From a phage: a stretch of DNA of 64,000 bases. Position numbers and translations under genes: made by a program. Of this stretch, positions 4,065 through 41,055 are shown piece after piece. The first letter of the stretch is position 1. Every line of letters starts with the position of its first letter. A model generated the notes under the pieces. The model worked only from the letters and a program-made list of their open reading frames with translations, was not told where the DNA came from and did no database searches. Location of the stretch: sequence record PZ402301.1. The stretch is one strand, 5' to 3'.

Positions 4065-4301
4065 TTATTTACCTATTACAGTTTTAATATGAGTTGTTCC
4101 ACGTTCTTTAAGAGTGGAAAGCAATTTTTGGCATTTTTCTAAATCAGATTTCCAACTATACGGTCTATCAATACAAACCCATTCTGACTTATAATACTGC
4201 TTCCATTTAGAGAAAAAATATTTCTTATACTCTACAGCAAATGAAATGTTCTCATTAGAATAAGAACTAATTGCTGTGAGCTGTACCAAACGAAATTTCA
4301 T
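4065..4301 (-). CDS. hypothetical protein, 78 aa (31.2 position)
   Basis: ORF track; start abuts stop of upstream cd. Confidence 0.55.
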   Translation of the reverse strand: MKFRLVQLTAISSYSNENISFAVEYKKYFFSKWKQYYKSEWVCIDRPYSWKSDLEKCQKLLSTLKERGTTHIKTVIGK

Positions 4302-4882
4302 TATTCACCACAGAATTCGTTGATATTTTCCCAATTTAACTTATTCAAGTTTTTCTTAGGAACATTAAACACTTCAATACCCGCATTTCGCAGAATATCA
4401 TCCCAGCCAGGTTTATTTTTATCGTATGTTTCGCAATAAACCAACTTTTTAATTCCAGATTGAGCTATCGCTTTTGCACAATCTGGGCAAGGAGAAAGTG
4501 TTACATACATAGTAGCACCTTCAATTGAAGAACCATTTCGCGCAGCAAACAAAATCGCATTTAGTTCAGCATGAATTTCATTTTTAGACGACCATTCAGA
4601 GTGAGCACTACGGTGTTCTTTCGCCAAAACAAAACGATCAGTTGAACCAAACGATACACATTCGGGCTTATGTCCTTGAATGATAGTATGTTTAGGTTTA
4701 TTCAACAACCAACCTTGCTCAGCAGCATAATCACAACAGTTCACACCACCTGCCGGAGAACCGTTATATCCGGTAGAAATAATACGTCCATTCTTTTCAA
4801 TTACTGCTCCTACCTTCCAGGAGCAACATTTTGATTCTTGTGATACTAAATATGCAATTTGAAGTACTGTACTCGCTTTCAT
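4301..4882 (-). CDS. cd: dCMP deaminase
   Basis: 193 aa; cytidine/dCMP deaminase zinc motifs HAELNA and PCPDC in translation. Confidence 0.9.
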   Translation of the reverse strand: MKASTVLQIAYLVSQESKCCSWKVGAVIEKNGRIISTGYNGSPAGGVNCCDYAAEQGWLLNKPKHTIIQGHKPECVSFGSTDRFVLAKEHRSAHSEWSSKNEIHAELNAILFAARNGSSIEGATMYVTLSPCPDCAKAIAQSGIKKLVYCETYDKNKPGWDDILRNAGIEVFNVPKKNLNKLNWENINEFCGE

Positions 4883-18412: not shown

Positions 18413-18450
18413 TTCCTCTTTAATCATCATCAGCAGTATTGCCGATAGTT

Positions 18451-18483
18451 GTATAGTACCACAGTATGCTTTGGTTGTAAACC
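18451..18483 (-). promoter_or_regulatory. early promoter for the frd.x-frd-td transcription unit
   Basis: GTTTAC (rc of 18477-18482), TACTATAC -10; immediately downstream of gene 32 terminator. Confidence 0.6.
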
Positions 18484-34449: not shown

Positions 34450-35085
34450 TCACAGTTCAGATGCTACGGTGATTACTGCTTCAATGTTTTCTGCAGAGCG
34501 TTTAATGTCAAGATACACATTACCATTTTTAGCGATTTTGCATGACATTCCGATATCAGTAAATTTCTGAATATGATGTTCCATCATTTTGTATCCAAAA
34601 ATTCGCATATTTCCATTGTTGTTAATTTCAAAATTACGAATTCCGTGAGTGCGTTTTTCTAAAATAGCGAGATAGTTACTACGATAAGTTTCAACCTTTT
34701 TAAGAACAAATCCATTTTCATCTAAAAGTTTTAACATGAAGTCTTTATCTTCTTCCATATCGGAAGTAATCTCACGAGCTTTACGGGTTGCTCGTTTTTT
34801 CAGTAGTTCCGGAGCATTTTCCTGTGCGTATAAAGTTGCTGCATTTGAAATAATATCCTGAGCTTCACCAGTAATGATTAATCCATCACCAGATTTCTCC
34901 ACCAGGCCTTTTTTAATCAATACCCCAATATTACTATTAACTACTGCGTTACCTAAATCTGGATGCACCTCACGAACTTCTGCAGCTGTAATGAAATCTT
35001 TCTTAGCAATGGTAATTAAAATCGCAGCAGTTTTTTCATTCAGAACATCGTTAGAAGCTTTGATGATGTAAGTTACTTTAGACAT
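34450..35085 (-). CDS. motA: MotA middle-transcription activator
   Basis: 211 aa, T4 MotA length and sequence pattern; promoter 35124-35157 upstream. Confidence 0.9.
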   Translation of the reverse strand: MSKVTYIIKASNDVLNEKTAAILITIAKKDFITAAEVREVHPDLGNAVVNSNIGVLIKKGLVEKSGDGLIITGEAQDIISNAATLYAQENAPELLKKRATRKAREITSDMEEDKDFMLKLLDENGFVLKKVETYRSNYLAILEKRTHGIRNFEINNNGNMRIFGYKMMEHHIQKFTDIGMSCKIAKNGNVYLDIKRSAENIEAVITVASEL

Positions 35086-35123
35086 TTTCTAATCTCCGTA
35101 ATTCTGTATCAGTAGTTGATAGT

Positions 35124-35157
35124 TGTATAGTACCACAGTATGCTTTGGTTGTAAACC
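35124..35157 (-). promoter_or_regulatory. early promoter upstream of motA (near-identical copy of 18451-18483)
   Basis: GTTTAC (rc of 35151-35156), TACTATAC -10; about 70 bp nearly identical to promoter at 18445-18517. Confidence 0.6.
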
Positions 35158-35177
35158 GTTTTGTGAAAAAAATTTTG

Positions 35178-35207
35178 AAATAAAAAAGGGAGAGCCTCGG
35201 CTCTCCC
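35178..35207 (-). terminator. rho-independent terminator upstream of motA promoter
   Basis: Hairpin GGGAGAGCC-GGCTCTCCC followed by U-run on minus strand. Confidence 0.7.
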
Positions 35208-35213
35208 TAAAAT

Positions 35214-35363
35214 TTACTGCATGACTGTGATAACTGTCATGATAACACGTTGAATTCCGAACGCAAGAAGACCTCCTGCTACGGCTGGAACAACACCTAA
35301 ACCCGCCAGTAAAATGCTACCGGATACTAATGCAGCGCTTGTAATACCAATGAATGGACTCAT
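35214..35363 (-). CDS. small hydrophobic membrane peptide, 49 aa (motA.1 position)
   Basis: Found by reading; ATG 35361-35363 overlaps gene 52 stop (ATGA); glycine/alanine-rich transmembrane sequence; not in ORF track (<60 aa). Confidence 0.55.
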   Translation of the reverse strand: MSPFIGITSAALVSGSILLAGLGVVPAVAGGLLAFGIQRVIMTVITVMQ

Positions 35364-36688
35364 TTGATTTCCTCTAAATCTTTAGTGTATTCTGTAACTA
35401 CATCAGTAGTTTTCCAATATTCGTTTTCTTCTTTTTTAGCTTTAGCTTCTTCAGCAAGTTTCTTTGCTTCGTCGGAAGTCATATGAAAAATGTTCATTCC
35501 AACTAGTTTATCAACATAAGAAGAATACATATCAATTTTAGAAAGTTCTTCAGTCAGTTCTTTGCGAGTTTTACCTTGTACAACAATTTCACCTGAAATC
35601 ACTTTCTTAATGAAATGTGCCTTGGCAAAGGCTAAACGAAATGCTGATTCAGTTTCTTTGATTTTATTATCAATTCGTTTTTGGACATAAGTTTTACGAA
35701 CTTCAACGAAGTCTTTGATTAAATCAACTACGTTATCGTAAACTTGCAGCTTTCCTTTCTCATTAATGACGGTAATATTCTGAGAACGACGCTCAATCAA
35801 TCCAAAGTCTTTCATAATTTTTGCATGGCGTTCTTCTTCGTTATCGCTCAAAGAATATTCTTTACGGAATTTAACTTTGAAGCCAAAACCATGCTCACCA
35901 CAAGCATCATCCCATGTAATGAAGCCTTTATCTTCAAGCGGGTCTAAGATTTTACTCACGTAAGTTTCACGATCATACTTATACGGAATCTCAGTGATAT
36001 TCATTTGAGTTCGTGAAGTAAACTTGTACGTTCCACGAATTTCATATTGACCGTCAATTTCAACGACTTCACCACGAAATTCTGGGAATTCTACCTTCGG
36101 TTTAGTTACTTTCTTTCCTTGAAGAGCTTGTAGTACAGCTTTCTTGACAGAAGAAACACTATGAGGAAGAATGTAAGTTGCATAACCAGTTGCAATACCG
36201 GAAACGCCATTAAGAAGAACAGTAGGAATAATAGGCAAATAGAAAGCAGGCGGAATGTGTTCTTTATCTTGATGTACCGGAGCATATTCAGTATCTTTAT
36301 ATACGCTATAGAAATTTTTACTTACACGAGCAAAAATATAACGGCTTGCAGCTGCTTTTTGAACGGTACGAGAACCAAAGTTTCCTTGACCATCTAACAA
36401 AGGAAAGTTATTATTCCAAGTATTAGCCATCAAAGCCCCCGCGTCTTGCGCAGAGTTTTCACCATGATGATATCCAAGGTCAGCTACACCACCTGCAATA
36501 GAAGCGAGCTTGTGAAACTTATCTTTATTTCCTCGCGCCAAATCAAGAGCTCGAGCAATAACAAACCGTTGAACTGGCTTAAATCCATCAATCATATTTG
36601 GAATAGCACGATTTTCAACCGTGTACATAGCATAAGCCAATGCTTCATTATCAATGATACTTTTTAAATCGCGATTATTCAGTTGCAT
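35360..36688 (-). CDS. 52: DNA topoisomerase II medium subunit (GyrA-like)
   Basis: 442 aa, T4 gp52 length; type II topoisomerase A-subunit features. Confidence 0.95.
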   Translation of the reverse strand: MQLNNRDLKSIIDNEALAYAMYTVENRAIPNMIDGFKPVQRFVIARALDLARGNKDKFHKLASIAGGVADLGYHHGENSAQDAGALMANTWNNNFPLLDGQGNFGSRTVQKAAASRYIFARVSKNFYSVYKDTEYAPVHQDKEHIPPAFYLPIIPTVLLNGVSGIATGYATYILPHSVSSVKKAVLQALQGKKVTKPKVEFPEFRGEVVEIDGQYEIRGTYKFTSRTQMNITEIPYKYDRETYVSKILDPLEDKGFITWDDACGEHGFGFKVKFRKEYSLSDNEEERHAKIMKDFGLIERRSQNITVINEKGKLQVYDNVVDLIKDFVEVRKTYVQKRIDNKIKETESAFRLAFAKAHFIKKVISGEIVVQGKTRKELTEELSKIDMYSSYVDKLVGMNIFHMTSDEAKKLAEEAKAKKEENEYWKTTDVVTEYTKDLEEIK

Positions 36689-36692
36689 AAAT

Positions 36693-36833
36693 TTACCATA
36701 CTAGTGAATGTAGTGCCATAATAACATCAGAAATGAAAAGCACGACTTGAATTAATCCGAACATTACTCCATAATATAGTGCTACCAATAAAGTAGCAAG
36801 GGCTAATGAATAGCCCAAGATTTTCTTAATCAT
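36693..36833 (-). CDS. small hydrophobic peptide, 46 aa (52.1 position)
   Basis: Found by reading; ATG overlaps ac stop; single predicted TM helix. Confidence 0.5.
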   Translation of the reverse strand: MIKKILGYSLALATLLVALYYGVMFGLIQVVLFISDVIMALHSLVW

Positions 36834-36984
36834 TGGTAGATAACAACACAAATGTTAAATATGCACACATACCCTGGGCTAAAGCTTGTGAAAACACACT
36901 ACTAGCATCGATACAGATAGTTAAAACACATGCTACTATCCAACAAATAAATGAAATAACTCCTAATAGTTTTGCAATATTCAT
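36826..36984 (-). CDS. ac: Ac-like small membrane protein (acriflavine sensitivity), 52 aa
   Basis: Found by reading; GAGGAAAAT RBS; hydrophobic; lies between stp and 52 as in T4. Confidence 0.6.
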   Translation of the reverse strand: MNIAKLLGVISFICWIVACVLTICIDASSVFSQALAQGMCAYLTFVLLSTND

Positions 36985-36991
36985 ATTTTCC

Positions 36992-37072
36992 TCACTGGCG
37001 TCCGAAGACGCCTTTAGTTTTAAGATTGTTACGATAGAACTGCATTACATGTTCGTTATGGAAATTACTCAT
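36992..37072 (-). CDS. stp: Stp peptide (activator of host anticodon nuclease PrrC)
   Basis: 26-aa [29 protein letters not shown], matching remembered T4 Stp; ATG overlaps ndd stop. Confidence 0.8.
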
Positions 37073-37527
37073 TAGTATGCCTGCAAAACAAATTTAAAGT
37101 TATCAGCCAACATACGATTCATTTCTTCAAGCGTTTGATACTCAGAATGATGATTACGAGTAAACGCTAAAGCTAACTGACCTTTTCCAAATCCCGTCGT
37201 CAGAGGTTTCATCTTAGAAGCAGGTAGATAAAATACCGTGTATGGAACATTGTTATTTGCAATAGTACGCGCAAGCTGAGATCGACGCTGGCGAATATGA
37301 CTTAGAACTGCACTGAATCCTTGCTTAGAACGCTGATTACCTACATAAAATCGCGCAGATACACACGGACTATCAAATGGACCACCAAATTTGCTTACTA
37401 AAAAGTAAAATCCAGGGTTAGACAAAATGTCTTTATGTGGAGTTCCAAAAACCCATTCACCGCCCTTGATTGTACCAATAACAGTTGCGCCTGCATTATT
37501 CAAATCAGTAACAGTCATATATTTCAT
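37072..37527 (-). CDS. ndd: Ndd nucleoid-disruption protein
   Basis: 151 aa, T4 Ndd length and sequence pattern. Confidence 0.85.
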
Positions 37528-37586
37528 GTTATTTTCCTCTAATTATTTTCTACTCCAAGGCCGCATGAATACACACGGCCGATAAA

Positions 37587-37802
37587 TTAATCGTCGCAGT
37601 CGACGCTCAATTCCCAGAACTCTTCTACGGTATAAGTTTCAGTATCATTTTCAATACAGAAACGTTCATTACTGTTATTTGCTAAAGTAGCGTTAACTGT
37701 CATTTTCTCGCTAGTGCTTTTAAGAGGTGAAATACGAATTAACTGATCACCATTATCTAAACAGAAAATTTCACCGACCTTTACATCTTTAAAAATTTTC
37801 AT
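37587..37802 (-). CDS. hypothetical protein, 71 aa (ndd.x block)
   Basis: ORF track. Confidence 0.5.
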   Translation of the reverse strand: MKIFKDVKVGEIFCLDNGDQLIRISPLKSTSEKMTVNATLANNSNERFCIENDTETYTVEEFWELSVDCDD

Positions 37803-37917
37803 AATTCACCTCAAGGAGTATAAAATCCAAACGCAGTTGTTGACCATCCCATCCAGTATGGGAAATTTGCACCAATGTAAAACATAAGAATATAAAACCA
37901 ACCACTCAGCAAATTCA

Positions 37918-38136
37918 TCATTTTACACCATTCCAAATTGTTTCAACCACAGATTTTAAGCCATTTTGATGAATGTCCATTCCGACAACTGCCATCAAAT
38001 AGATTCCAACTACAGCTGAACCTAAGGCGAAAATCAGCATGAAAATGAATAAAGCTGGAAAAATATTATCGAAAAACCATTCCATAAATGTAAAAGCACT
38101 ACGTTTACGCTTCATATTTTCCTCACATAAATCCAA
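37918..38136 (-). CDS. small membrane protein, 72 aa
   Basis: ORF track; two hydrophobic segments. Confidence 0.5.
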   Translation of the reverse strand: MDLCEENMKRKRSAFTFMEWFFDNIFPALFIFMLIFALGSAVVGIYLMAVVGMDIHQNGLKSVVETIWNGVK

Positions 38137-38236
38137 AATAAGCGTTTAATACATCAATCATTAAAACGATTGGGAATATACTCAAAACTACTAGTATTAT
38201 AACTACATTCCATATAGCTTTAACAATCTTTTTCAT
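38123..38236 (-). CDS. tiny membrane peptide, 37 aa (track ORF trimmed to ATG behind promoter)
   Basis: ATG 38234-38236 with GAGGAA RBS directly downstream of promoter 38259-38295. Confidence 0.4.
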   Translation of the reverse strand: MKKIVKAIWNVVIILVVLSIFPIVLMIDVLNAYFGFM

Positions 38237-38258
38237 TTTCTGTTCCTCTGTAGTTGAT

Positions 38259-38295
38259 AGGGTAATAATACCACAGAGGAACAGTCTTGTAAACA
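38259..38295 (-). promoter_or_regulatory. early promoter-like element
   Basis: GTTTAC (rc of 38289-38294), TATTATTAC -10. Confidence 0.5.
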
Positions 38296-38301
38296 ACTTT
38301 T

Positions 38302-38400
38302 TTAAAAATATTCGTAATAAATGTGAATGCCAATCACTACTGCCGAAACTTGCGCAACCCACCATGCACAAGCAATAAGTACAGAATTCAAAATTTTCAT
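38302..38400 (-). CDS. tiny hydrophobic peptide, 32 aa
   Basis: Found by reading; GAGG RBS; ATGA overlap with upstream tiny ORF. Confidence 0.35.
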   Translation of the reverse strand: MKILNSVLIACAWWVAQVSAVVIGIHIYYEYF

Positions 38401-38483
38401 AATAACCTCATCACAAAAGTAAATGTTAAACAAATTAATGGAATACTAATTAACCAAATAAAACACCACCACAATGAACTCAT
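38397..38483 (-). CDS. tiny hydrophobic peptide, about 28 aa
   Basis: Found by reading; ATG overlaps stop of 90-aa ORF (ATGA). Confidence 0.35.
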   Translation of the reverse strand: MSSLWWCFIWLISIPLICLTFTFVMRLL

Positions 38484-38752
38484 AGTTCAATCTCAGCGAT
38501 TTTCATTTCATTATTATTAATAGCCGCTTTAAGACTATCTGAAAGAATTACATCCCAGTGGTCATTCATATGACCATTAACTAAACGTGTAATTTCTTCG
38601 GGAGTTGAAAAATAAGGCGTATCAGACTCCCAATGCGATAGTCCCAAGCGAGTATAAATCATACCTTCATCATCGCTAGAATATTCAACTGACACAAACT
38701 CATCAGTTATTTTATGTTTAGCGTAATAAAATTTAAATTTCATTTTACTCAA
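38480..38752 (-). CDS. hypothetical protein, 90 aa
   Basis: ORF track; coupled to neighbours. Confidence 0.55.
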   Translation of the reverse strand: MSKMKFKFYYAKHKITDEFVSVEYSSDDEGMIYTRLGLSHWESDTPYFSTPEEITRLVNGHMNDHWDVILSDSLKAAINNNEMKIAEIEL

Positions 38753-38955
38753 TAATCCGCTAAAAGATCGACGATTGCATCACGAAGACACTTATTCGCA
38801 ATACGTTTAAGAGCAATTTCAGTTTCTGGAGCATTTTGAATAATCATTGAATTCAATTCAGCCTCAGCAAACTGAAGTTCTTTGACTAATTCAGCTTTAT
38901 ATTTTCCTTGCCCTTTCTTAGCTTTTGCTCGTTTTAATTCAGCTGTAGTAAACAT
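38749..38955 (-). CDS. hypothetical protein, 68 aa (track ORF trimmed to ATG downstream of promoter)
   Basis: ATG 38953-38955 with GGAGA RBS; promoter 38987-39020 lies inside the longer track ORF. Confidence 0.5.
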   Translation of the reverse strand: MFTTAELKRAKAKKGQGKYKAELVKELQFAEAELNSMIIQNAPETEIALKRIANKCLRDAIVDLLADY

Positions 38956-38986
38956 TTTATTCTCCAAATCTATATCAGTTGATAGT

Positions 38987-39020
38987 TGTATAGTACCACA
39001 GTCCTTGTGGTATGTAAACC
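38987..39020 (-). promoter_or_regulatory. early promoter-like element
   Basis: GTTTAC (rc of 39014-39019), TACTATAC -10. Confidence 0.5.
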
Positions 39021-39035
39021 GTTTTGTGAAATTTT

Positions 39036-39593
39036 TTAAATGGAAAGATACCATCCGTTGTAGTTGCTTTTTCTTACAACTTTACGAAGGTCTTCTCTAT
39101 CACCGATGAACTTCGGAGTGTACTGGATGACACCTGGATGAATTTCTTTAGTGTTGAATATAATTATACAGTCAGCGACTTGATGATTTAGAATGGGCCC
39201 TAGATTTATTCCAGAACCGTATGGATACTCTCCGCTGCATCCGGTTGTTACCGAAATCCAACGTGAGTCAGTTTGATGTGTTTTGACTTCTACACGAAGC
39301 CCGCAGTATCTTGGGTGCGCCAGTACATCCCACGCATATGTATACGGGTCATTAACATCCTCTTGGCCTTTGTTAACATACCCGCTTAGCCAATCTGCTA
39401 CAAAAAACTCTGCATACACAGCGATACGACATCTTTCAATGACTTCTGCTTTATCCTGGTTCGGGTTTTGTTTTAAAGAGTATCTTGCTGTATCAGCAAT
39501 TTTGACCTTCATTTCACTAGTCAAATCATTGTTCGATAGGGTAAATGTCGGAATCTGAAATAGTCTCTGTAAACCTGGATTCGTTTTCTGCAT
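39036..39593 (-). CDS. denB: endonuclease IV
   Basis: 185 aa, T4 DenB length; position between ndd block and rIIB. Confidence 0.85.
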   Translation of the reverse strand: MQKTNPGLQRLFQIPTFTLSNNDLTSEMKVKIADTARYSLKQNPNQDKAEVIERCRIAVYAEFFVADWLSGYVNKGQEDVNDPYTYAWDVLAHPRYCGLRVEVKTHQTDSRWISVTTGCSGEYPYGSGINLGPILNHQVADCIIIFNTKEIHPGVIQYTPKFIGDREDLRKVVRKSNYNGWYLSI

Positions 39594-39855
39594 TTAGACT
39601 TTCCTTTTTACCACTAAGATAAGCGTTATGTACTTTAAGAGTGCCGTAATAAATTCGATCATTTTCATGTAAAGACTCACTGTCAAGTTCATCGAGTTTC
39701 TTTTTATCCATGACTATAACATCATTACAATAAAGAAACCCAAGTTTTTCGTGACCAAACTCGAATTTATTGCAGTACACAATATTAGCGTGATGATTTC
39801 CGTGCAGTTTAATCTCTTTTATGTCGGAATCACCGATATTCATACAATAAATCAT
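39526..39855 (-). CDS. hypothetical protein, 109 aa (denB.1 position)
   Basis: ORF track; AAGGAAAAA RBS; overlaps denB start by about 68 nt. Confidence 0.55.
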   Translation of the reverse strand: MIYCMNIGDSDIKEIKLHGNHHANIVYCNKFEFGHEKLGFLYCNDVIVMDKKKLDELDSESLHENDRIYYGTLKVHNAYLSGKKESLNAENESRFTETISDSDIYPIEQ

Positions 39856-39893
39856 AATTTTTCCTTAAAACAAAAGGGCCGAAGCCCCTTATT

Positions 39894-40088
39894 TTATTTA
39901 AATTGTGCAATTCTTTTCTCTAAACAATCCGCGTAAGATTTCATTGAGATGAACTGCGAAAGCAACAGTTCTTGCTCAACTGCATTAACCGTTGAAAACT
40001 TTTCACTTTCTAAAAATTTGCTCAGTGCATTAATTTTGAGCATTAATTGATCGTATTCTTCTTTTACTCGTGCTTGATAACCTAACAT
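39894..40088 (-). CDS. hypothetical protein, 64 aa
   Basis: ORF track; AAGGAAAA RBS; flanked by UUCG hairpins. Confidence 0.5.
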   Translation of the reverse strand: MLGYQARVKEEYDQLMLKINALSKFLESEKFSTVNAVEQELLLSQFISMKSYADCLEKRIAQFK

Positions 40089-40116
40089 AATTTTCCTTAG
40101 TTAAGGGCCGAAGCCC

Positions 40117-41055
40117 TTATTTAAATTGTTCAGTAACGTCTTCAACTACTTCGTATTGGCAGGTACGCATTTTAGCGTCGTTATAATCAATCGGAATTGA
40201 TACTACATCGCGAGGATGTACTTTAACTTTTACAACTCGGCTGGTTGAACTGCCAAAGTGACGAATATAAGATTTAGAACACACATGCAGACCACGAGAA
40301 CAAGTTTGTGTATCATCGTCATTCACACGAGTACGTGGCATTTTAACTACTTTGCCAGGACTGTTATCAAAAGTATTTGAATGACAGTCAAAGTAATTAC
40401 TGCGAACTACTTTCCAAGCATAGAAGTAACCGTCTTCTGTAATTTCAATATCGTTTGCTACCAAAAAATCAAAGAGTCGAGATACTGCTTTTTGGCTTGG
40501 GTTTTCCAGCAGATTTTCCAAGAACGGAAAATAAAATTCAAAGTTTTCGCCTTTTTCCATCGAATCAAGAATACGATCAACTAAACCAGATCGCAATTCA
40601 ATATTTTGATAGAACAAGCTTCCACCTTCAATTCGAACATCACCGGAAATATATTTTTCAACAGCGCGACGAACGTTAATTTTTTGCGCTGCTTCTTCCA
40701 ATTTATCTGCAACAAGCAGATTAAGAATTTCTTGGAAGTTTGAATGAGTATTAGGAGTTGCGTTATAAGTTACACCGTCAACAGTAATTGAAATGAATTT
40801 TTTAGATGCATTCCAAATAATGTCAGATTTAGCAACTGGAGCAATAGCTGCATCGCTCTTAACTGTAACTGTAATGTCACCGCTAATGGTAACTTTGGAG
40901 CGCTCAGCTTCTTCAGCATTTTTCAAAACACGACGGATTGTGTCAACCGATACACCTTGCCAATCAGCCAATTCCTGTTGGGTATAATTACCACTTGAAT
41001 ACAATTTAACAATTTCAGCTTGTTCGTTTTTGGTCAGGCATTTAATATTGTACAT
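40117..41055 (-). CDS. rIIB: RIIB membrane-associated protein
   Basis: 312 aa, T4 rIIB length; adjacent to rIIA. Confidence 0.9.
   Translation of the reverse strand: MYNIKCLTKNEQAEIVKLYSSGNYTQQELADWQGVSVDTIRRVLKNAEEAERSKVTISGDITVTVKSDAAIAPVAKSDIIWNASKKFISITVDGVTYNATPNTHSNFQEILNLLVADKLEEAAQKINVRRAVEKYISGDVRIEGGSLFYQNIELRSGLVDRILDSMEKGENFEFYFPFLENLLENPSQKAVSRLFDFLVANDIEITEDGYFYAWKVVRSNYFDCHSNTFDNSPGKVVKMPRTRVNDDDTQTCSRGLHVCSKSYIRHFGSSTSRVVKVKVHPRDVVSIPIDYNDAKMRTCQYEVVEDVTEQFK

Follow-up and report, generated by a model that had tools for sequence, protein, structure and literature searches.

The window analyzed here is a stretch of phage DNA of 64,000 nucleotides (sequence record PZ402301.1). 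On its minus strand, between the genes for the DNA topoisomerase II medium subunit (gene 52) and endonuclease IV (denB), it carries a block of very short open reading frames (ORFs), here called micro-ORFs, which occupies positions 36693-38483; a further micro-ORF, motA.1, begins at the stop of gene 52. An original prediction, made from the sequence alone, had described these ORFs as a run of translationally coupled hydrophobic peptides and as candidates for a role in host takeover or exclusion. The micro-ORFs that it listed, 52.1, ac, stp, ndd.4, ndd.5 and ndd.6, are all present on the minus strand at the positions given below, and the 49-amino acid membrane peptide that it placed at the gene 52 stop (35214-35363) is motA.1, joined to gene 52 by an ATGA overlap. 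All the listed ORFs are real, but two were overlooked, ndd.2 (35 or 36 amino acids) and ndd.2a (65 amino acids). The nine micro-ORFs are as follows.

35214-35363, minus strand: motA.1, 49 amino acids, glycine- and alanine-rich and hydrophobic; product identical to T4 MotA.1 (phrog_3487).
36693-36833, minus strand: 52.1, 46 amino acids, a predicted hydrophobic helix; Pfam DUF7396, same position as in T4.
36826-36984, minus strand: ac, 52 amino acids; T4 Ac with an extra threonine three codons before the stop (phrog_2501).
36992-37072, minus strand: stp, 26 amino acids, hydrophilic and basic; product 100% identical to T4 Stp (PF08133).
37811-37921, minus strand: ndd.2, 36 amino acids from the first ATG (37921) or 35 from the second (37918); phrog_4135.
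37918-38115, minus strand: ndd.2a, 65 amino acids; Pfam DUF7248, equivalent to T4 'ndd.3' and 'ndd.2a' joined in one frame.
38123-38236, minus strand: ndd.4, 37 amino acids, a KK N-terminus followed by a predicted hydrophobic helix; phrog_3098.
38302-38400, minus strand: ndd.5, 32 amino acids, hydrophobic; phrog_5011.
38397-38483, minus strand: ndd.6, 28 amino acids, hydrophobic; phrog_8851.

We consider it highly probable that this region is the phage's own copy of the T4 accessory block denB-ndd.6...ndd-stp-ac-52.1-52-motA.1, and that its micro-ORFs are real protein-coding genes. The T4 reference genome (NC_000866) annotates all nine, as T4p263-T4p275, with gene order and overlaps as in the window; that they were missed by an ORF track starting at 60 amino acids, as the original prediction had stressed, is a mere effect of the length threshold. 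Strand and spacing also agree with T4, and the proteins are 92-100% identical. The differences from the T4 reference are minor and consist of an unsplit 65-amino acid ndd.2a, one added threonine in Ac and two additional genes, orfX and orfY, between ndd.6 and denB. When the window peptides were compared by tblastn with T4 and eight other Tequatrovirus loci, they matched over their full length at 86-100% identity, a second type of Ac excepted. The T4 locus in this comparison did not include motA.1, and the identity of MotA.1 to its T4 counterpart comes from an alignment instead.

A nucleotide search with the ~4-kb stretch around the micro-ORFs returned 730 matching phage records, 487 of which reached a query coverage of at least 80%. 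The matches come almost exclusively from T4-like phages of Escherichia, Shigella and Yersinia, with Shigella phage SF2-1 at the top (98.3%). For the 1.8-kb interval 36693-38483, the top match was vB_EcoM_BMB16 (99.3%), and the T4 assembly OZ209057.1 was ~94% identical. On the strength of these broad T4-like matches, we assign the window to Tequatrovirus (T4-like) phage DNA.

The micro-ORF set is therefore not new: its members are long-annotated T4 early genes, for which protein families already exist. Each of the nine micro-proteins has a full-length match to a PHROG family, with E-values of 4e-17 to 2e-31, and T4 synteny in addition, for MotA.1, Ndd.2, Ndd.4, Ndd.5 and Ndd.6 (the families listed above), and with E = 3.7e-25 over residues 1-51 for Ac, which lies between stp and 52.1. 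In Pfam, gp52.1 matches DUF7396 over residues 1-46 of 46 (81.9 bits, cut-off 27), Ndd.2a matches DUF7248 over residues 5-63 (72.5 bits, cut-off 27) and Stp matches PF08133 (Nuclease_act) over residues 1-26 of 26 (75.3 bits, cut-off 25). Pfam gave no match for MotA.1, Ac, Ndd.2, Ndd.4, Ndd.5 or Ndd.6, and NCBIfam gave no meaningful match for any micro-protein. A sequence search of solved structures in the PDB with Ndd.2a, Ac and gp52.1 returned nothing at E up to 1, and an Rfam scan of 34900-40200 found no match. With these genes in the T4 annotation for decades and their families assigned, the block has little value as a discovery. Its remaining value lies in a compact, conserved group of about eight membrane micro-proteins, almost none of which has an assigned function, in a deletable block with an unexplained lipid-synthesis phenotype, and in the link between Ac and a host efflux pump, which was made only recently.

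The DNA of this region is AT-rich and holds 103 ORFs of at least 20 amino acids in 7 kb. The mere presence of a micro-ORF therefore says little, and we tested conservation and codon constraint, the check that had been suggested along with the original prediction. Codon constraint was measured as the Nei-Gojobori ratio of nonsynonymous to synonymous differences per site (pN/pS), in the annotated frame, from alignments with nine Tequatrovirus relatives. The start and frame of every micro-ORF are kept in all nine, and the apparent exceptions can be explained: Stp of RB68 ends one codon early, the exception in ndd.2a is a 1-nt gap in the T4 reference, and two seeming breaks in ndd.5 are alignment artefacts at the stop codon, both genes being annotated as intact 99-nt coding sequences (CDSs). 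The original prediction had named frames not preserved in related phages as the observation that would count against it, and the opposite was found, both in these relatives and in hundreds of database records.

Within the genus, pN/pS is mostly low. It is 0.03 for stp, 0.08 for ndd.5 (variable sites at first, second and third codon positions: 1, 1 and 9), 0.10 for ndd.2a (4, 1 and 17), 0.11 for ndd.2 and 0.15 for motA.1 (7, 3 and 20); for ac it is 0.00 within one allelic type and 0.48 with both types pooled. Substitutions are thus concentrated at third codon positions. As controls, we took 16 ORFs of 26-80 amino acids from other frames or the other strand of the same DNA. Their pN/pS is mostly 0.5-8.75, and their starts or frames are often lost; the exceptions, at 0.19-0.47, have lost starts or frames in several relatives, and the lowest of them (0.19) is an antisense frame that shares third codon positions with a sense gene. 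The kept frames and starts, together with low pN/pS in the annotated frame, therefore make the micro-ORFs more than chance occurrences, and we regard them, on this comparative evidence, as real genes with conserved frames under purifying selection.

The same picture emerges from other genera, represented by Dhakavirus Bp7 and VR5, Gaprivervirus VR26 and Mosigvirus RB69. 52.1 is intact in all four, where it again stands directly upstream of gene 52 (cross-genus pN/pS 0.09-0.24), ndd.4 is intact in Bp7, VR26 and VR5 (0.34-0.36), ndd.6 has homologs in RB69, Bp7, VR26 and VR5 (0.31-0.60), and stp is intact in other genera as well (0-0.27). Read in its other two frames, the same DNA gives ~0.85-4. 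At the scale of the sequence collection, near-full-length tblastn matches, counted for seven of the ORFs, were found in 813 phage records for 52.1, reaching Klebsiella and Raoultella phages at 50% identity, 596 for ndd.4, 519 for ndd.2, 494 each for ndd.5 and ndd.6, 493 for motA.1 and 472 for ac.

Across genera, gp52.1 is as conserved as the adjacent gp52, or more so: its identity is 93% in Bp7, 89% in VR5, 87% in VR26 and 74% in RB69, against 81, 80, 69 and 88%, respectively, for gp52. Synonymous divergence (pS) is also low, at 0.085 for 52.1 and 0.038 for ndd.4, compared with 0.13-0.21 for neighboring genes. 52.1 may be under a dual constraint, in which the function of the peptide is combined with coupling or a promoter.

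The genes are tightly packed, with overlaps of 1-8 nt or spacers of 4-8 nt. As had been predicted, ATGA overlaps can be read at the gene 52/motA.1 junction and at three junctions of the ndd block, namely ndd.6/ndd.5, orfX/ndd.6 and the ndd.2a stop with the first ATG of ndd.2, and the ndd stop and stp start share one base in TAATG. 52.1 begins within the 3' end of ac, which it overlaps by 8 nt. The Shine-Dalgarno sites claimed for most of the ORFs are strong in five of them: GAGGA or GAGGT stands 4-7 nt before the ATG of motA.1, ac, ndd.2a, ndd.4 and ndd.5 (GAGGA for motA.1, 6 nt upstream, and for ac and ndd.4; GAGGT for ndd.5). The claim does not extend to 52.1, stp, ndd.2 and ndd.6, which have no convincing site, and in all four of these the start overlaps the upstream stop. 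Because they combine the lack of a Shine-Dalgarno site with a start within the stop of the preceding gene, these four are probably translated through termination-reinitiation coupling, while the remainder probably use their own GAGG sites. The translational coupling proposed for the run as a whole is, to this extent, consistent with the tight packing and the overlaps. The first ATG of ndd.2 is ATA in four relatives, and its second ATG (37918) is kept in all of them.

Longer versions with TTG starts (52, 72, 82, 43 and 41 amino acids) were rejected, because the ATG starts have Shine-Dalgarno sites or stop overlaps, fit the T4 annotation and are conserved across genera. A 101-amino acid version of orfY was rejected because of a promoter-like site inside it. 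A further ORF of 37 amino acids at 38220-38333 (minus strand, with a TTG start here), which the ime09, RB68 and Ozark records list as a CDS, is probably spurious: its pN/pS is 0.94, and it spans the promoter-like spacer between ndd.5 and ndd.4.

A membrane span was called where the Kyte-Doolittle mean over 19 residues was at least 1.6. The best 19-residue window scores 2.18-3.05 in MotA.1, gp52.1, Ac, Ndd.2a, Ndd.4, Ndd.5 and Ndd.6, 1.17 in Ndd.2 and -0.85 in Stp, which leaves the last two below the threshold. The membrane character originally attributed to the set thus holds for seven of the nine, which are strongly hydrophobic; Stp is hydrophilic and basic, with a grand average of hydropathy (GRAVY) of -1.03, and Ndd.2 is only moderately hydrophobic, uncharged and rich in aromatic residues. 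The seven hydrophobic peptides (28-65 amino acids) have a basic N-terminus or almost no charge. Ndd.2a combines a basic N-terminus (KRKR) with a hydrophobic core and an amphipathic tail, and its single-sequence AlphaFold2 model is one long helix over residues 5-64, with a predicted local distance difference test (pLDDT) score of 90; the corresponding model of gp52.1 is also one helix (pLDDT 94.5). As weak evidence, both models are compatible with membrane helices, but they do not settle topology or function.

In T4, a published time course lists early transcripts for motA.1, 52.1, ac, stp, ndd.2, ndd.2a, ndd.3, ndd.4, ndd.5 and ndd.6 (PMC9697503, Table S2). For most of these genes, the description 'largely uncharacterized' given in the original prediction is apt, and the literature that we searched assigns no function to MotA.1, gp52.1 or Ndd.2-Ndd.6. 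It does not suit Stp, which is well characterized, or Ac, which has a known phenotype and a proposed target. T4 Stp is both necessary and sufficient to activate the latent PrrC anticodon nuclease; its target is the type IC restriction enzyme EcoprrI, whose restriction is alleviated while PrrC is unmasked, and the tRNA-Lys cut by PrrC is repaired by T4 Pnk and Rnl1 (PMC3014915). The window copy has the same 26 residues, in the same place between ndd and ac, and would be expected to have the same activity. Inhibition of type IC restriction by T4 Stp is known for EcoprrI and EcoR124I. Unlike its neighbors in the block, Stp is not hydrophobic, and it is regarded as a soluble and not a membrane peptide.

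Knockout of ac makes T4 resistant to acriflavine, and expression of ac in Escherichia coli heightens the sensitivity of the cells to both acriflavine and ampicillin; in the model proposed by the authors, Ac enters the membrane and obstructs AcrAB-TolC, with a build-up of acridines as the result (bioRxiv 10.1101/2025.06.30.662393; PMC13250531). The Ac of this window is 96% identical to T4 Ac, in the same position, and differs by the extra threonine that gives it 52 amino acids. Phage PP01 has the same variant, which is reported to be functionally equivalent to T4 Ac (bioRxiv 10.1101/2025.06.30.662393; PMC13250531), and an acriflavine effect can be predicted for the window copy. Within Tequatrovirus, two allelic types of Ac exist, with only 40-48% identity between them: one is found in T4 and the window, the other in RB68, G157lw and UFV-AREG1, at ~1938-2093 in these loci. 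The flanking 52.1 and stp are nearly identical in both cases, a pattern suggestive of ac having been replaced as a cassette or of diversifying selection on it.

A phenotype for the block as a whole comes from the T4 deletion saΔ9, which removes 52.1, ac, stp, ndd, ndd.1-ndd.6 and denB. This deletion gives a yield of 50% of wild type and abolishes the T4-induced stimulation of phospholipid synthesis (PMC6071114); the same paper, which was the one phage paper found to mention ndd.1-ndd.6 by name, calls their products unknown. Since this stimulation is lost in saΔ9, at least one product of the block therefore perturbs membrane lipid metabolism. As to the suggested role in host takeover or exclusion, the capacity to span a membrane fits it, but nothing points specifically to exclusion, and the block is dispensable in laboratory hosts.

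Building on the identity of the genes, their conservation and purifying selection, the hydrophobic helical character of most products and the early transcription seen in T4, we infer the following mechanism. The block would comprise early accessory genes carried on one or two early transcripts, and the tight spacing would let ribosomes move along these transcripts from each small cistron to its neighbor. The hydrophobic peptides would enter the host inner membrane within minutes of infection, where each would bind or modulate one host membrane component, after the model proposed for Ac. Stp would work in the cytoplasm, on the restriction complex. E. coli itself has small single-helix regulators of membrane machines, such as AcrZ, MgrB, MgtS and SgrT; AcrZ (49 amino acids) binds AcrB, and the proposed action of Ac resembles this. 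The phage peptides would resemble these regulators in size, in having a single hydrophobic helix and in the proposed binding to a larger membrane protein. They differ in that there is no sequence similarity, and in that the phage peptides belong to a phage early operon and the regulators to a host stress regulon.

We offer tentatively, as a doubtful but live possibility, a more specific version of this mechanism, in which one of the uncharacterized hydrophobic micro-proteins would modulate, as a small helix with a specific target, an enzyme or transporter of the host inner membrane. The same protein could then be the long-sought factor behind the T4-induced stimulation of phosphatidylglycerol synthesis, which saΔ9 abolishes. 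The best candidates are gp52.1, with its high conservation across genera, or one of Ndd.2a to Ndd.6. If this were true, the block would amount to a kit of phage-encoded regulators of the AcrZ type, of which Ac, with the efflux pump proposed as its target, would be the first example.

A number of points weigh against the reading of the block as conserved coding genes with membrane-active products. The constraint signal within the genus is thin for three members: pN/pS is 0.19 for 52.1 (variable sites by codon position 6, 2 and 6), 0.21 for ndd.6 (4, 1 and 4) and 0.54 for ndd.4, which has just 7 variable sites. In the T4 proteome, the products of motA.1, 52.1, ac, stp and ndd.2-ndd.6 were undetected (class NA), while Ndd and Ndd.1 were seen (PMC9697503, Table S2), and it is for this reason that we infer translation from selection. 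Membrane insertion and topology are predictions from hydropathy and single-sequence models. As a deletion of the whole block, saΔ9 could owe its lipid phenotype to denB or ndd instead of a micro-protein; a review notes that the stimulation is also lost in a mutant without dCTPase, endonuclease IV and Alc (PMC6071114). Finally, the link between Ac and AcrAB-TolC is a proposal made in a preprint and not a demonstrated interaction.

We weighed three other explanations of the micro-ORFs. That they are chance frames in AT-rich intergenic DNA, kept in annotation by habit, is very improbable. The abundance of short ORFs noted above and the silence of mass spectrometry on the proteins would fit this idea, as would the behavior of automatic gene callers, which often skip these genes (52.1, stp, ndd.4 and ndd.6, for example, are missing from the Pyrodigal annotation of a recent T4 assembly). 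It is contradicted by frames, starts and lengths that are kept in nine relatives and hundreds of records, by the third-position enrichment, by a pN/pS that is low in the annotated frame only and unlike that of the control ORFs, and by the genetics behind stp and ac. For the set as a whole we regard chance as refuted, ndd.4 and ndd.6 being its weakest members. A subtler alternative is that some of the micro-ORFs, chiefly 52.1, matter by being translated, as leader or coupling ORFs that feed the next gene or keep the mRNA open, while the peptide itself has little function. 52.1 has several features of such an ORF: it starts within ac without a Shine-Dalgarno site; gene 52, which also has none, begins 4 nt past its stop; promoter-like hexamers lie within it at 36799-36771; and the low pS of 52.1 and ndd.4 suggests an added constraint at the nucleotide level. 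Against this stands the peptide itself, a hydrophobic helix of 46 residues for which an ORF that served coupling alone would have no use. Its sequence is 74-93% identical in four genera, with a conservation that equals or beats that of gp52 and a pN/pS far below that of the other two frames. We judge this explanation improbable on its own, but both roles may coexist, and a coupling or leader role is most plausible for 52.1, as an additional one.

It is similarly unlikely, in our view, that the hydrophobic peptides are membrane-damaging toxins comparable to TisB or Hok, or superinfection-exclusion factors comparable to Imm or Sp, which depolarize or seal the envelope. Small size, hydrophobicity and early transcription would suit either role; according to a review, many small T4 immediate-early genes kill the host when cloned, and Ac alone sensitizes E. 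coli to acriflavine and ampicillin. The likeness to type I toxins (TisB, Hok, Ldr, Ibs) and to phage holins and antiholins lies in their being short hydrophobic peptides, but it is not accompanied by any family match: searches of Pfam and NCBIfam revealed no membership of a toxin or holin family, the sole weak match being that of Ac to Bac51 (14.8 bits against a cut-off of 150), and Pfam, NCBIfam and the PDB showed no sequence relation to toxin, holin or exclusion families. Neither an antisense RNA locus nor a dual-start motif was seen, though no search was aimed at either. The T4 exclusion genes imm and sp are at other genome coordinates, and the available portion of the report on the block deletion describes no exclusion phenotype (PMC6071114). 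Moreover, each peptide has a conserved, distinctive sequence of its own, which favors specific contacts over generic membrane damage. The preferred reading thus remains a T4-type block of conserved coding genes, whose hydrophobic products may each act on a particular membrane component.

Current automatic annotation often omits these genes or gives them wrong names, and a single absent base divides one of them in the T4 reference. NC_000866 lacks one G at codons 2-3 of ndd.2a (ATGAACGT versus ATGAAGCGT; window positions 38090-38115), a G that the window, the eight other relatives and the newer T4 assembly OZ209057 all have. The single absent G therefore accounts for the T4 genes 'ndd.3' (26 amino acids) and short 'ndd.2a' (40 amino acids), which, judging from the alignment, are one split gene, through either a sequencing error or a strain-specific frameshift. 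Intact but unannotated homologs of stp occur in Bp7 (2810-2887) and VR26 (2811-2891), and unannotated homologs of ndd.6 in RB69 (4232-4318), Bp7 (4162-4251), VR26 (4620-4703) and VR5 (4310-4399), all in coordinates of the extracted loci; the Dhakavirus and Gaprivervirus ndd.6 homologs have an apparent TTG start after a GAGGTG Shine-Dalgarno sequence. Confusion of gene names has led to misnaming in GenBank, where ndd.4 is found as 'naphthalene 1,2-dioxygenase'. Other misnomers are 'flagellar motor protein MotA' or 'transcriptional regulator' for motA.1, and 'chaperone for long tail fiber formation' or 'baseplate wedge subunit' for ndd.2.

The neighboring genes and the putative transcription signals of the region are listed below.

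35187-35208, minus strand: intrinsic-terminator-like hairpin directly after motA.1, with a 9-pair stem (6 G-C pairs) and then the T run TTTTTTATTT.
35360-36688, minus strand: gene 52, DNA topoisomerase II medium subunit; no Shine-Dalgarno site, start 4 nt past the 52.1 stop.
37072-37527, minus strand: ndd, nucleoid disruption protein, 151 amino acids; T4 match.
37559-37580, minus strand: stable RNA hairpin between ndd.1 and ndd, identified from its folding energy.
37587-37802, minus strand: ndd.1, 71 amino acids, acidic and soluble, too long for a micro-peptide; T4 match.
38265-38293, minus strand: sigma-70 early-promoter-like site in the ndd.5-ndd.4 spacer (TTTACA, 17 nt, TATTAT, with a TG).
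38480-38743, minus strand: orfX, 87 amino acids, soluble, RB69ORF270c-like, absent from T4; upstream of ndd.6 and overlapping its start.
38749-38955, minus strand: orfY, 68 amino acids, soluble, absent from T4 by sequence comparison.
38990-39018, minus strand: early-promoter-like site immediately past denB, belonging to a repeat of the motA promoter region.
39036-39593, minus strand: denB, endonuclease IV, which bounds the block upstream; T4 match.

The two early-promoter-like sites, at 39018-38990 and 38293-38265, are on the coding strand, and the ndd.5-ndd.4 spacer resembles, by nucleotide match, a T4 record annotated with promoters. At the other end, the strong terminator-like hairpin (35208-35187) is likely to mark the end of the transcription unit. 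The hairpin between ndd.1 and ndd has a 9-bp G+C-rich stem (GGCCGUGUG/CAUGCGGCC) with no T run behind it, and a folding energy of -19.8 kcal/mol over an 81-nt stretch (z = -2.8); it may be an mRNA-stabilizing or processing element and not a terminator.

The presence of orfX and orfY varies among relatives, and orfY is 94% identical in Gaprivervirus VR26. Between ndd and stp, the ime09 (2465-2638) and UFV-AREG1 (2171-2344) loci have an insertion of ~166 bp with an ORF of 57 amino acids, which neither the window nor T4 has. An exact 24-nt repeat, TGTGGTACTATACAACTATCAACT, is found at 38977-39000 and 35114-35137, with a weaker third copy at 18440-18463. It sits in a similarity of ~60 nt that also contains TTCACAAAACGGTTTACA, with copies upstream of orfY and of motA, which we interpret, from the sequence, as a duplicated early-promoter region.

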